Shown here: piece after piece, positions 36,456 through 39,847 of the stretch
Layout: each line of letters begins with the position of its first letter
Numbering within the stretch: position 1 is the first letter of the stretch
From: an uncultured Mycoplasmatota bacterium
GTDB taxonomy: Bacteria > Bacillota_I > Bacilli_A > RF39 > UBA660
Length of the DNA stretch: 64,000 nt
Assembly: GCA_900548695.1 (NCBI GenBank)
Contig: URLC01000001.1
Location: 75,878 to 139,877 of the forward strand
Direction: 5' to 3'
Position numbers and translations under genes: made by a program
Notes under the pieces: generated by a model
Seen by the model: only the letters and a program-made list of their open reading frames with translations
What the model was told of the DNA's origin: nothing
Databases searched by the model: none

Positions 36456-37551
36456 TTATCTATTCTTTAAATTTGCTTCTATAAATATATCAATATCTCC
36501 ATCTAATACTTTGGTGACATTACTTGTTTCCGTATTTGTACGATGATCTTTGACCATAGAATATGGATGAAGTACATAACTTCTAATTTGGGACCCAAAA
36601 TTAATATTTGCTTGATTTCCCTTTATTTCATTTAATTCTTGTGCTTGTTCTTCCAGTTTTTTTATTAGCAATTTATTTTTTAAAACTTTTAAGGCTTGCT
36701 CCTTATTTTGAATTTGACTGCGTTCATTTTGACAAGTTACTACAATCTTAGTTGGTAAATGGGTAACTCTTACGGCTGAGTCCGTGGTGTTAACTCCTTG
36801 TCCTCCTGCTCCAGTTGAGCGGTATACATCAATTTTTAAGTCTTTTTCATCTATCTCAATATCAGAATCCTGTTCTATTTCTGGAGTTATTTCTACAGAG
36901 GCAAAAGAGGTATGACGACGATTATTAGAATCAAAAGGAGAAAGTCTTACTAATCTATGAATTCCTTTTTCATTTTTTAAATAGCCATAAGCATTGTGAC
37001 CAATTACTCTAATAGAAACATTTTTTATACCAGCTTCTTCTCCATCTTGATAATCTAAGACTTCTATTTTATATTTTTTCTTTTCGCACCATCTAGTATA
37101 CATGCGATAAAGCATTAAAGCCCAATCACAAGATTCTGTTCCTCCTGCTCCAGGATGAATTTCTAAAATACAGTTATTTTTATCATAAGGACCACTTAAT
37201 AACAATAAAATGTTTAATCTTTCAGCATCTTTATTTATTTCTTTCGTATCTGTTTCTAATAATTTTATACTTTCTACATCCTCTTCCACTTCTAATAACT
37301 CTATTAATTCCATATTATCATTAATTCTTTTTAGTAAACCTTCCATATCATCGATAACAGCTTTTTCTTCATTTAATTCTTTAATTATTTTTTCTGCTGT
37401 TATACGATCACTCCAAAAATTCATATCTTTTGTTTTTTCTTCTAGTTTATGAACATAAAGCTTTTTAGAATCGATGTCAAAGTGACCTCCATAAATCTTC
37501 TAATAAATTTTTATTTTTTTGTAAATCATCTTTAATTTCTCTTAATTCCAT
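36456..37551 (-). CDS. prfB: Peptide chain release factor 2 (two frames joined by programmed +1 frameshift)
   Basis: The upstream frame MELREIKDDLQKNKNLLEDLWRSL ends at an in-frame UGA within GGAGGUCACUUUGAC. The +1 frame continues DIDSKKLYVHKLEEKTKDMNFW..., with GGQ in SPFDSNNRRHTSFASV and a catalytic-domain match. AAGGAG RBS before the ATG at 37551. Confidence 0.9.
37467..37473 (-). promoter_or_regulatory. prfB autoregulatory +1 frameshift site CUU UGA C with upstream SD-like GGAGG
   Basis: Read on the minus strand: tatGGAGGtcaCTTTGAC. This is the classic RF2 recoding context. Confidence 0.85.
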
Positions 37552-37597
37552 ATTACTCTCCTTCTTATTTTGTTCTTTTTCATAAAAACTATGCTAA

Positions 37598-37706
37598 TTC
37601 ACTGTTAAGGTAACACATTTTAGCTTTTTTCTCAATTATTTTTTTATTTTATGTATATATTTTTGTAATTAGCATATAGTATTAGTGAGGAAGGTTCACT
37701 GTTAAG
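37598..37706. repeat. Two exact 12-bp direct repeats TTCACTGTTAAG (37598-37609 and 37695-37706) in prfB upstream / NADAR downstream region
   Basis: Read directly; the copies are 97 bp apart. Confidence 0.5.
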
Positions 37707-37732
37707 TGTGAAGATCCTCTGTAAATAGATAT

Positions 37733-37757
37733 AGGAGCTCAAATGGGCTCCTTTTTT
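37733..37757 (+). terminator. Plus-strand-oriented hairpin terminator AGGAGC-tcaaatgg-GCTCCT + TTTTTT with no plus-strand gene (possible small antisense/intergenic RNA end)
   Basis: Hairpin plus T-run on the plus strand only. The flanking genes are on the minus strand. Confidence 0.3.
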
Positions 37758-37836
37758 GAAAGGACATCGTATTAGTATTATGATGTCTTTTTATATTGAA
37801 TTTTAATATTATAGTTTTTCTATATATTTTGGTTTT

Positions 37837-38331
37837 TTACTTTTTCTTTTTTTTATATTCATCTCTTATTTTCATCCAAAGTTTTCCTAAATTATTTTGT
37901 CCACTTCTATTTGCTCCCCATCCCCAAAAGTTGTCTTTTGGGGAATCTTCCACTATTAGGTAATCTTTTGTTTCTAGTAATTTCTTCAATACATAGGGAT
38001 TCTGTTCTAATTTACATCTTAATATTTCTTCCATTACTCTTAATGACTTTTTTTTCCAATTTTTATCTTGTTTATCTTTGTTATAAAAGCTTATTTTTTG
38101 CGCTTCATGGGCTGAATGACTATTTTTAATTTTTTCGACAATTTCTGGAGATGACTCTATAAAATGAGCTGCTTGGTAAGCTTCTTCGGCAGTTGAGTAC
38201 AAATAGCCATTATATTCAACTTTAAAGGAACTAAAATTATCTAATGGATAAAATTCTCGTGGGTAAAACCCTATAACTTCTTCCATTTTTTCTGTTAACC
38301 ATAAGTCCCTGTATTGTTCCAATCTAATCAT
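37837..38331 (-). CDS. NADAR-domain protein (YbiA/DUF1768 family N-glycosidase / ADP-ribose processing)
   Basis: 164 aa align along their length to E. coli YbiA. Shared blocks: FYPL..DNFS.F, STAEEAYQAAHF, KNW, KLEQ, LLET...LVEDSP.DNFWGWG..RSGQNNLGKLWMKIR. Confidence 0.75.
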   Translation of the reverse strand: MIRLEQYRDLWLTEKMEEVIGFYPREFYPLDNFSSFKVEYNGYLYSTAEEAYQAAHFIESSPEIVEKIKNSHSAHEAQKISFYNKDKQDKNWKKKSLRVMEEILRCKLEQNPYVLKKLLETKDYLIVEDSPKDNFWGWGANRSGQNNLGKLWMKIRDEYKKKKK

Positions 38332-38389
38332 ATATTTACCTTCTTTCTATAGTAAATATACTGTTTAAAGAGGAACTATTATTGTCACA

Positions 38390-38866
38390 TTAAAATTTTT
38401 CTTCTAATATTTCTAATTTTGTTATTCTATTTAAATAAAAGTGTCTTATTTCTTGTTTACTTTCACAAAATGCAGCTACTCCCCATTTTCCTTCCAAAAT
38501 CATTAAATTATATGGTCTAATTTTTCTATATGTTATTTTATTATGTTCTTTTGAATAGTATTCTATATAGCACTTCGTCTTTGATTTAATAGCCTTACTT
38601 AAAATATTGAAAAATTCTTTATTATTCAATGTGATATTTTTCGGCTTAATATATTTTTCAGGTAATTTTATTTCTTGGTTTAGATAGTATCCACCATATG
38701 GTCCTCTTATTGTTTCAATAAAGATACCTGCTAATTCTAGCTCACTTTTGTATTGCCTTATCATTCTTGGAGTAACTTCTAATTTTTCAGATAATTCTTT
38801 AATACTATATTTTTTTCCATTTTGAAGATATTCCAGCATTAATAAAACATTAGAAAGTTTAGACAT
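38390..38866 (-). CDS. Compact HTH-WYL domain transcriptional regulator
   Basis: N-terminus LLMLEYLQNGKKYSIKELSEKLEVTPRMIRQYKSELELAGIFIETIRGPYGGYYL matches the HTH_11-type helix of WYL regulators. C-terminus YRKIRPYNLMILEGKWGVAAFC...RHFYLNRI is WYL-like. Confidence 0.7.
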   Translation of the reverse strand: MSKLSNVLLMLEYLQNGKKYSIKELSEKLEVTPRMIRQYKSELELAGIFIETIRGPYGGYYLNQEIKLPEKYIKPKNITLNNKEFFNILSKAIKSKTKCYIEYYSKEHNKITYRKIRPYNLMILEGKWGVAAFCESKQEIRHFYLNRITKLEILEEKF

Positions 38867-39183
38867 AATATCACCAACTATATTATACTTTAATTAACAA
38901 GAAAAAGATATGTAGCAGATATTAAAATTATATTTTAATCGTATCTATTCTTATTGTTTTTCTACTATTTATAATAATTATTATCTACCACATTTCTTAT
39001 ATTTCTTTTCTGAATCAACTAGAAAAATGAGAAATTCTATTTTTTGTGAACTTTTCTTCCTATTTTCATAGATGTTTAATAATCTTTAATTAGTGCCATG
39101 TAAAGGAATTCATAGGTTTCTTTAAATTCTTAATTACTTTTCCAATTCATTAAACTAAACTTGTATCTAAATCTATCTCTAAT

Positions 39184-39678
39184 TTAAAATAAATTAAATA
39201 AATAATAGTTTTCTTTATATTCATCTCTAAATAATCCACTTTTAATATATTTTCCACCTATATGTTTATAAAAATCATTTGACTTATTTCCATCTAAACA
39301 TCCAATAACTAACTTTTCAATTTTATTTTTCTTTATCATATCTACCGCAAAATTATATAATTTTTTTCCATATCCCTTACCTTGATATTCTTTTAAAATA
39401 TATAATGAATGTATCTCAGCGGCATCTTCATATTTATCTGAATCCAATTCAAAATAAATCCAACCAGCTATTCTATTATTAATTTCCAAAATATAATAAT
39501 TAGGCTGATCAACAATATGTTTTTTTATTTTTTCAGCAGAGTCATTTTCATAATTAAATAAATTATTTAAAAATTCTTCGTTGACAATACCTTTATATGT
39601 GTCGTTCCAAACTGTTGCTATTGCATGAGCTAACTCTTGAGCATCTTCTTTTTTTCTTTTTCTAATTATTGCTTCCAT
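39184..39678 (-). CDS. GNAT family N-acetyltransferase
   Basis: 164 aa with acetyl-CoA motif A LKEYQGKGYGKKLY. Confidence 0.7.
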   Translation of the reverse strand: MEAIIRKRKKEDAQELAHAIATVWNDTYKGIVNEEFLNNLFNYENDSAEKIKKHIVDQPNYYILEINNRIAGWIYFELDSDKYEDAAEIHSLYILKEYQGKGYGKKLYNFAVDMIKKNKIEKLVIGCLDGNKSNDFYKHIGGKYIKSGLFRDEYKENYYLFNLF

Positions 39679-39717
39679 ATTACCACCTAATGTTTATTAT
39701 ATACTAAATAAATATAA

Positions 39718-39756
39718 AAAGATATATCTGGAGTTTTAGCAACCAAATATATCTTT
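39718..39756 (-). terminator. Hairpin AAAGATATAT-(19 nt)-ATATATCTTT with T-run, downstream of secA
   Basis: Read directly. It is followed by a T-run on the minus strand. Confidence 0.4.
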
Positions 39757-39847
39757 CAATAATTTAAATTGTATCTAATTTGTATCTAAAGGTAGAATTG
39801 TGCTTATTTTAGTTTTACTAAAATCTTACAATCTCTTATAAATCATA

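Follow-up and report, generated by a model that had tools for sequence, protein, structure and literature searches.

A putative regulatory module of a compact HTH-WYL protein, a conserved promoter element and exchangeable nucleotide-processing genes in uncultured gut Bacilli

Introduction

PafBC of actinobacteria and DriD of Caulobacter are WYL activators of SOS-independent DNA-damage responses, and both sense single-stranded DNA, as does CapW (PMC11804915, PMC9186387, PMC11662680). The promoters of PafBC have a -10 box but no -35 box, together with a "-26 element" at -23 to -28 (PMC8635444). CapW and BrxR, which are composed of a winged helix-turn-helix (wHTH), a WYL and a WCX domain, are repressors encoded beside BREX, CBASS and other defence systems. 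Operons in which a WYL or Nudix regulator accompanies an ADP-ribosylglycohydrolase (ARG) and a phosphatase have been predicted by Iyer et al. (2022; PMC9503650); a link of WYL to NADAR or Ham1 is not described in that work. Here, we report on a gene pair in which a short HTH-WYL protein precedes a NADAR enzyme of the YbiA family. The pair is located between secA and prfB in 64,000 nucleotides (nt) of the genome of an uncultured Mycoplasmatota bacterium (GTDB: Bacillota_I; Bacilli_A; RF39; UBA660), namely positions 75,878-139,877 of the forward strand of contig URLC01000001.1 in assembly GCA_900548695.1. This whole stretch is called the window below, and all positions are given in its numbering. 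Comparison with 1.67 Mb of fetched loci from relatives (designated L005, L171 and so on) suggests that the pair is one form of a module in which the regulator and its promoter element are conserved and the downstream gene is exchanged among nucleotide-processing hydrolases.

Every NADAR subtype examined in vitro, YbiA among them, was able to hydrolyse guanine-ADP-ribose, and riboflavin intermediates are a further substrate of YbiA (PMC11125620, PMC11543638). The subtypes are told apart by one amino acid of the final beta-strand, which is Glu in YbiA, Asp in the BC4488 and DarT-linked type and His in the phage gp30.3 type (PMC11125620). The ybiA gene of E. coli belongs to a DNA-damage operon under LexA control, and YarT has a YbiA-type protein as its antitoxin (PMC11125620). 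The physiological substrates of the widespread YbiA-type and stand-alone NADARs are an acknowledged open question (PMC11543638, PMC11125620).

In an earlier note on this DNA, it was proposed that the WYL protein controls NADAR and that such a system had not been described. The literature searched revealed no WYL-NADAR or WYL-Ham1 link, and "WYL domain" was paired with Ham1, ITPase or CYTH in no paper. The proposed control gains support from the conservation of the spacer between the two genes and generalises to a lineage-wide module, binding of the spacer by the WYL protein being the predicted part.

A conserved promoter element behind the WYL gene

The WYL-NADAR gap measures 58 base pairs (bp), and no terminator is predicted in it. 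The shortness of the gap was the ground on which the two genes had been taken for a two-gene operon, but the same gap holds a conserved element and a -10 box, so that NADAR probably has a WYL-controlled promoter of its own. The spacer pattern TGACAtAtATAtTTCC-N11-TAnnnT is near-invariant whichever gene follows. When 68 distinct spacers were compared with TGACA anchored as position 0, TGACA itself and the positions A6, A8, T9, T12, C14, C15, T27, A28 and T32 were 96-100 % conserved, and position 10 was A in 91 % of the spacers. T27, A28 and T32 form the signature of the sigma-70 -10 hexamer (TAnnnT), which carries a TG extension in about 70 % of the copies. A -35 box could not be placed 16-18 bp upstream of this -10 box, TGACA being located 22 bp from it. 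The spacer reads as a fixed element plus a -10 box without a -35 box.

The composite pattern occurred 91 times in the fetched loci plus the window, and in 90 cases it directly followed a WYL gene. The sole exception, at L032:12162, is located before a CYTH gene, 5.7 kb from the WYL gene of that locus (6001-6477), which has lost the element and is followed by a Cof-type HAD gene. The position of this copy before a distant CYTH gene indicates that the element belongs to the promoter of the downstream gene rather than to the 3' end of the WYL gene. In the 64-kb window, the spacer carries the only such site. A regulon of further sites in the window was considered and dropped, one site having been found where a looser pattern expects 1.4 by chance.

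Exchange of the downstream gene

In nearly all loci, a gene on the same strand is located 25-72 bp behind the WYL gene. Counted per fetched locus, with some loci being copies of one region, this cargo consists of a SIS-like protein of ~343 amino acids followed by Ham1 (26 loci), NADAR (19), Ham1/ITPase (about 19), a HAD-like protein (8), the SIS-like protein alone (6), NADAR followed by HD (4), the SIS-like protein followed by an unknown protein and Nudix (4), or CYTH (3). CYTH followed by NADAR and HAD followed by NADAR were each seen in one locus, and one locus encodes a HAD-NADAR fusion protein.

The pair of WYL and NADAR is a recurrent one. NADAR is part of the gene set directly behind WYL in 17 of the 80 best species-representative genomes, with a gap of 53-64 bp in most relatives, and it does so in all but one of the metagenome relatives that were looked up at 66-94 % WYL identity; in the remaining one, a HAD-like gene follows. 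Nearest-neighbour WYL proteins carry different cargo in 19 of 76 comparisons, and cargo also varies inside one WYL cluster grouped at a 20 % distance cut-off. By family assignment, the turnover spans nucleotide, ADP-ribose and phospho-sugar hydrolases, and the module is best described as a conserved regulator plus promoter behind which one nucleotide-processing hydrolase gene is replaced by another. An integron-like exchange of cassettes at a conserved junction was considered because the cargo changes exactly after the conserved sequence; it is unlikely, given that the modules come without an integrase and that the conserved stretch looks like a promoter.

Two modules are located 2.5 kb apart in L015, one with NADAR (5992-7027) and one with HAD (8950-9435 onwards). 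The same spacer element is present in both, and cross-regulation is possible, judging by this shared element. The commonest cargo, a protein of 343-360 amino acids found at L040:6537-7568 and in about 30 other loci, where it is usually followed by Ham1, matched no Pfam family above threshold, one member giving a faint SIS match (E = 0.008), and sequence comparison with the PDB revealed no relative.

The compact HTH-WYL regulator

In the WYL protein, Pfam HTH_11 covers residues 9-60 and the WYL domain, matched over the full model, residues 84-153. In an AlphaFold model with a mean predicted local distance difference test (pLDDT) score of 87.7, residues 3-62 fold into a winged HTH (three helices plus a beta-hairpin), from which a linker of poor definition and a single helix lead to a beta-barrel formed by residues 97-157. 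The last WYL strand closes the chain at residue 158, leaving no WCX extension. BrxR, PafBC, CapW and DriD were the top Foldseek matches of the model (probability 1.00), albeit with target-normalised template-modelling (TM) scores of only 0.22-0.30 against targets of 266-330 amino acids. A profile of the WYL domain sequence matched PafBC at 7.4e-9. The protein has both the wHTH and the WYL domain and is a compact, WCX-less variant of the family, not a standard member.

Relatives were found in 298 species-representative genomes; the best 80 come from as many different assemblies of uncultured gut Bacilli, "Tenericutes" or CAG type. Clustering of the homologues at 90 % identity yields over 1,800 clusters, the best 120 of which share 66-94 % identity with the window protein; 68 alignment columns are invariant among 26 homologues. 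At 50 % clustering, a tight family of 15 clusters is obtained (E <= 1e-30), which grades into short proteins of 185-210 amino acids and then into ordinary WYL regulators of ~315 amino acids. When viral contigs were scanned with the WYL alignment, no relatives were obtained, and a phage origin was rejected on this basis.

The sequence upstream of the WYL gene shows nothing but a -10 box and the preceding gene's terminator; in relatives, this box mostly reads TGnTATAAT and is located 15-25 nt before the ribosome-binding site. Autoregulation of the WYL gene via the spacer element was rejected, as no shared motif or operator is found upstream of the gene.

The NADAR enzyme

The NADAR protein scores 92.7 bits against PF08719 (cut-off 35.1) and 88.1 bits against NCBIfam TIGR02464, "riboflavin biosynthesis intermediates N-glycosidase" (cut-off 73.7). 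It is a bare YbiA domain, and its best solved relative is E. coli YbiA (2b3w; 4.3e-15), which is of similar length. The alignment of the two retains TAEE/TSEH, the Glu of IVED/LVEH in the last strand and D..WG (DnfWG/DayWG). With the Glu in its last strand, the protein belongs, by alignment, to the YbiA subfamily.

The spacer between NADAR and prfB (285 bp, 37552-37836) contains a hairpin of its own, GAGGATCTTCAC-N8-GTGAACCTTCCTC, at 37687-37719 on the - strand, of which the stems are invariant and the loop is variable. In 25 of 26 copies (the window and 25 loci), it is located 195-310 nt upstream of the prfB frameshift, whatever gene precedes; in L111, it is found 1.8 kb upstream of the frameshift site. 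Approximately 200 nt of the spacer are near-identical between the window and Faecimonas, a conservation above that of the flanking genes. The hairpin region, the fold of which has a z of -3.2, had no match in Rfam and could represent a leader of prfB or a small RNA.

Comparison with described systems

The window WYL protein has in common with PafBC and DriD the wHTH and the WYL beta-barrel fold, and its outputs, like theirs, would deal with nucleic-acid damage. Its presumed target promoter resembles those of PafBC in that a -35 box is missing and an element specific to the factor is located just upstream of the -10 box, TTCC at about -27 to -24 in the window compared with -23 to -28 for PafBC (PMC8635444). 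It differs from them in size (158 amino acids versus about 320, or ~640 in fused PafBC), in the lack of WCX and of a visible heterodimer partner, in that it appears to control one adjacent gene set rather than a large regulon, and in its host, which belongs to a low-G+C gut lineage of the Bacilli. The best structural matches are with BrxR and CapW (7qfz at 3.7e-9, 7tb5, 9c5g). Those are likewise one-component regulators encoded directly upstream of the genes that they control, control being predicted in the case of the window protein. CapW responds to single-stranded DNA (PMC11662680). Unlike BrxR and CapW, the window module has neither downstream defence genes nor WCX, and its conserved site is located after the regulator gene and before the cargo, not in the promoter of the regulator itself.

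On the enzyme side, E. coli YbiA and the window NADAR are alike in domain content, last-strand Glu, D..WG motif and TIGR02464 score. Both are paired with a regulator, ybiA being wired to the DNA-damage regulator LexA (PMC11125620) and the window gene presumably to a member of a different family; in the modules, moreover, Ham1, HAD or CYTH can take the place of the window type behind an unchanged promoter. The DarT1-NADAR and YarT-YbiA systems also contain a NADAR enzyme that hydrolyses guanine-ADP-ribose. In contrast to them, no adjacent ADP-ribosyltransferase was present in any locus inspected; the neighbours of the window NADAR are WYL and prfB, it is not of the BC4488 type with Asp, and it pairs with a regulator instead of a toxin. 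A concept close to the present one, a one-component HTH-WYL sensor coupled to an ADP-ribose or nucleotide enzyme, underlies the operons of PMC9503650, in which a phosphatase is often found alongside; HAD, HD and Nudix partners are present in the WYL modules here. The differences are that NADAR, Ham1 and CYTH take the place of ARG, that the WYL protein is compact and that the modules have a core-like chromosomal setting, not one of a conflict island. Taken together, a one-component WYL regulator with adjacent targets is of a known kind; what is new is the compact, WCX-less variant with swappable cargo.

Proposed mechanism and alternative explanations

The reading that we favour, with a probability of roughly 0.55, is that the WYL protein binds the spacer element and, on a signal derived from nucleic acid, gates the promoter of an enzyme that cleans up nucleotides or nucleic acids. 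Transcription of the WYL gene would start from a TATAAT promoter of its own, and the gene product would bind TGACA-N7-TTCC, of which TGACA occupies about -39 to -35 and TTCC about -27 to -24 relative to the predicted start. Once bound, it would gate the NADAR promoter with its -10 box and no recognisable -35 box. Activation, through a PafBC-like adaptation of RNA polymerase, seems somewhat likelier than repression, since a -35 box and a TG extension are both missing from the NADAR-type promoters. The trigger could be a nucleic-acid-derived ligand in the WYL barrel; single-stranded DNA is the precedent, and a nucleotide or ADP-ribose derivative is possible. The output here would be NADAR, a predicted N-glycosidase that could free guanine of ADP-ribosyl or similar adducts or break down ribosylated metabolites that are reactive, and in sister lineages the same regulator and promoter would drive Ham1/ITPase, HAD, CYTH, HD, Nudix or SIS-like genes. 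The cargo set (ITPase, Nudix, HAD, HD, CYTH and NADAR) would point to the removal of aberrant nucleotides or base adducts. Gene content, element conservation, cargo turnover and YbiA-family membership are observed; that the element is bound, which way regulation runs, and which ligand and substrate are involved is what we infer in this scheme.

Several points weigh against it. The spacer element is non-palindromic, which is unusual for a homodimeric wHTH protein, and WCX, the dimerisation extension, is missing from the WYL protein. As no terminator separates the two genes, read-through from the WYL promoter probably gives basal, and perhaps much, expression of NADAR. In Faecimonas and its relatives, NADAR is kept by prfB without WYL, so WYL control is dispensable for NADAR. 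The ligand may be a different one, as MbpR binds c-di-GMP (PMC11880434), and LexA is encoded in one related genome, which leaves no gap for a WYL-based damage response to fill. A more specific proposal is that the WYL protein, instead of sensing single-stranded DNA, recognises a small molecule derived from nucleotides (for instance, a nucleotide that is deaminated or otherwise non-canonical, ADP-ribose or a derivative thereof), and that the unit is a plug-and-play socket for whichever hydrolase removes this class of compound in gut Bacilli with reduced genomes; we advance it tentatively, well below even odds.

The locus could also be a ligand-gated immunity or antitoxin cassette, as suggested in the earlier note, in which NADAR would undo the ADP-ribosylation of guanine inflicted by a toxin of a phage, a competitor or the cell itself and the WYL protein would switch it on at attack. 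The activity of the NADAR subtypes tested on guanine-ADP-ribose and the YbiA-type antitoxin of YarT (PMC11125620) are in line with this, as are the frequent location of WYL regulators such as BrxR and CapW beside defence systems, the WYL- or Nudix-regulated de-ADP-ribosylation operons predicted by Iyer, Aravind and colleagues (PMC9503650) and the integration hot spot downstream of secA (see below). However, an ADP-ribosyltransferase family was neither on record nor found among the neighbour genes of the loci inspected, scanned unannotated ones included, and viral contigs held no relatives. The only PADLOC match for NADAR is weak (PDC-M42C, 32 bits), the NCBIfam anti-phage NADAR model DS32_2_antiphage gives 80.3 bits against a cut-off of 240, and WYL obtained only generic PADLOC WYL models; a recognised defence system was rejected because the PADLOC and anti-phage models remain far below family level. 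The last-strand residue is the Glu of the YbiA family, not the Asp typical of DarT-linked NADARs (PMC11125620), and the alternative cargoes Ham1, HAD, CYTH and Nudix point to nucleotide metabolism, not to toxin reversal. The very high conservation, 70-80 % identity across many lineages, suggests purifying selection rather than an arms race. We therefore regard the immunity cassette as improbable.

We hold it to be just as doubtful that NADAR is a plain housekeeping enzyme that destroys reactive intermediates of the riboflavin pathway, with WYL a mere neighbour, autoregulatory or directed at other targets, and the spacer an ordinary promoter. Such a role would agree with the TIGR02464 score above its curated cut-off, with E. 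coli YbiA as the closest solved structure by sequence, with a conservation of the housekeeping type and with the retention of NADAR beside prfB with or without WYL. It would leave unexplained the ~16 bp conserved upstream of the -10 box, which match no sigma-70 -35 box at workable spacing, and the position of the element behind WYL in 90 of its 91 occurrences with any cargo; riboflavin genes were linked to the module in none of the contexts seen. Finally, the spacer might act at the RNA level, with a leader structure or an anti-Shine-Dalgarno sequence (CCUCUU versus AAGGAG) controlling translation on a bicistronic mRNA and no DNA site involved. A bicistronic mRNA is likely given that no terminator separates the genes, and the pyrimidine-rich TTCCTCTT is located 25-30 nt upstream of the purine-rich ribosome-binding site in most copies. 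Against this, RNAalifold found no conserved pairs in 69 spacers, Rfam returned nothing for the spacer at the gathering score or even at E <= 1, NADAR-type copies pair poorly when the alignment is inspected by eye, and the invariant T27, A28 and T32 fit a -10 hexamer. With both RNAalifold and Rfam empty, an RNA element was rejected as the main reading of the spacer, and we consider it very unlikely.

Gene layout and history of the secA-prfB interval

According to the list of open reading frames (ORFs), secA, GNAT, HTH-WYL, NADAR and prfB are all located on the - strand, and ~2.3 kb separate the secA stop from the prfB start (Table 1). The earlier description of three small genes, each with its own signals, is borne out by the -10 boxes and ribosome-binding sites read for each of them, and the Pfam matches for GNAT, WYL/HTH_11 and NADAR all exceed the curated cut-offs, in agreement with the domains first assigned. 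The terminator attributed to secA at 39718-39756 was recovered with nearly the same limits; the fold of 39700-39790 has a free energy (dG) of -20.5 kcal/mol (z = -4.0), and none of 200 shuffled sequences was equally stable. The window hairpin that precedes the WYL gene was rejected as a terminator, being weak (z = +0.45); its counterpart in L005 is the secA terminator. The two hairpins behind NADAR are likely the end of the WYL-NADAR transcription unit. The guanine plus cytosine (G+C) fraction is lowest in GNAT and the spacer behind it (0.20-0.22, the minimum of the region), ~0.25-0.28 in WYL-NADAR, which is near the local background, and 0.28-0.34 in secA and prfB.

Table 1 Features of the secA-prfB interval, in the order of the gene strand (window numbering)
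Feature	Position	Strand	Remarks
secA	39848-42340	-	830 amino acids; Pfam SecA_DEAD 1.7e-126 plus remaining SecA domains; upstream boundary of interval
TAGATACAA, two tandem copies	39769-39788	-	just downstream of secA
secA intrinsic terminator	39717-39757	-	A+T-rich 15-bp stem, 11-nt loop, U-run
GNAT -10 box TATAAT	39701-39696	-	plus ribosome-binding site; read from sequence
GNAT acetyltransferase	39184-39678	-	164 amino acids; Pfam Acetyltransf_1 7.4e-15
GNAT-WYL spacer	38867-39183	-	317 bp, non-coding; no ORF >= 50 amino acids on gene strand
TAGATACAA, further copy	39161-39169	-	just after GNAT
TAGATACGA	38939-38947	-	with the TAGATACAA copies, direct repeats flanking GNAT
WYL -10 box TATAAT	38887-38882	-	ribosome-binding site GGTG; read from sequence
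HTH-WYL regulator	38390-38866	-	158 amino acids; Pfam WYL 1.5e-13, HTH_11 9.4e-9
TGACA	38387-38383	-	WYL-NADAR spacer element
TTCC	38375-38372	-	WYL-NADAR spacer element; then 11 nt to -10 box
NADAR -10 box TATATT	38360-38355	-	WYL-NADAR spacer element
NADAR predicted transcription start	near 38348	-	
NADAR ribosome-binding site GAAGG	38343-38339	-	
NADAR, YbiA family	37837-38331	-	164 amino acids; Pfam NADAR (PF08719) 3.9e-26; ATG at 38331
Two hairpins 3' of NADAR	37733-37793	-	GGAGCCCATTTGAGCTCC at 37733-37752 kept in relatives; second, 37757-37793, missing in L005
prfB	36456-37551	-	Pfam PCRF and RF-1; downstream boundary of interval

The three small genes had been interpreted as a single accessory insertion that splits a conserved secA-prfB pair. 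Comparison of the intervals points instead to three separate histories for the three genes, and not to one inserted cassette. L005, of which the WYL protein is 94 % identical to that of the window, has the order csp-hpf-secA-WYL-NADAR-prfB and no GNAT; its secA terminator directly precedes the WYL promoter, and the final ~80 bp of the GNAT-WYL spacer are common to both sequences. WYL-NADAR is thus also found between secA and prfB where GNAT is absent, and of the proposed insertion only the GNAT part holds, this gene being variable and insertion-like. Homologues of GNAT form only 141 clusters and are located in other genomic contexts. GNAT is a stand-alone, variable accessory gene unrelated to the WYL module. 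Direct repeats flank it in the window, and one TAGATACGA is found at the corresponding spot in GNAT-less L005; these repeats could be the footprint of a GNAT insertion, although their number is only marginally above chance (4 found versus 1.5 expected, 4 being reached in 6 of 100 shuffles).

Strains of the same species (L171-L174), with a GNAT that is 99 % identical, have the order GNAT-WYL-NADAR-prfB-YitT-YitT-FtsE-FtsX, as in the window. In these, a 3.4-kb islet is located in the last ~40 nt of secA (window ~39850), upstream of GNAT, and contains two small ORFs, a split phage-type integrase and RhuM. Its right junction is a duplicated secA 3' end (~40 nt), beyond which the sequence is a near-exact match to the window, so the window represents the islet-free form. 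GNAT as cargo of the islet was rejected, since the duplicated secA 3' end is located upstream of GNAT. By these comparisons, insertion-like behaviour is confined to GNAT and, in other strains, to the integrase islet. L085 has secA followed by Abi_2 (abortive-infection-like, L085:4260-5780), WYL, SIS-like and Ham1. The region downstream of secA is a hot spot of integration in this clade, as judged from the integrase/RhuM islet and from Abi_2 in L085.

The pair of secA and prfB is mostly non-adjacent in the clade of the window, defined here by prfB followed by two YitT genes with 67-83 % prfB identity. Within this clade, the genes upstream of prfB vary; ~12 loci have neither secA nor any of the three small genes there, and no secA was present within 7 kb. 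Direct adjacency of secA and prfB was seen only in distant Firmicutes with a prfB identity of <= 55 %, and an empty secA-prfB site was not found in the clade. NADAR directly precedes prfB in L092 and in L176-L181 (Faecimonas intestinavium and relatives); in the latter group, a leucine-rich repeat protein, a radical-SAM/SPASM protein and two unknowns stand before NADAR, and neither WYL nor secA is present. In L102, L103, L105 and L157, a WYL protein of 200 amino acids, a SIS-like protein, an unknown protein and Nudix are encoded directly upstream of prfB. The WYL module between secA and prfB may be old in the clade and may have been rearranged later.

The prfB gene contains a programmed +1 frameshift site (GGAGG at 37490-37486, three bases, and CTT TGA C at 37482-37476). 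Since this frameshift occurs at TGA, that codon means stop here, and the organism uses genetic code 11 rather than 4. Just upstream of csp-hpf-secA, an agr-like quorum-sensing locus (AgrB, histidine kinase and LytTR regulator) was recognised at 43456-46264 by synteny with L005. The only Rfam matches in the window are two ribosomal-protein leaders, S10-Clostridia (3390-3488) and L31-Firmicutes (51406-51433).

Implications

The rule that secA and prfB are adjacent fails in this clade. The module offers a concrete experimental handle, namely one 33-bp site and one protein of 158 amino acids, and a WYL protein without WCX but with a well-defined candidate site could serve to separate the roles of the WYL barrel and the wHTH. 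Its host is an abundant uncultured gut lineage in which gene regulation is essentially unstudied. The regulator and element that NADAR shares with Ham1/ITPase, Nudix, HAD, HD and CYTH place it in a context of nucleotide and nucleic-acid clean-up. If the WYL protein were indeed a socket-like receptor for small nucleotide-derived molecules, the module would constitute an inducible system for the detoxification of nucleotide damage or ADP-ribose and would give the orphan YbiA-type NADARs a physiological role.

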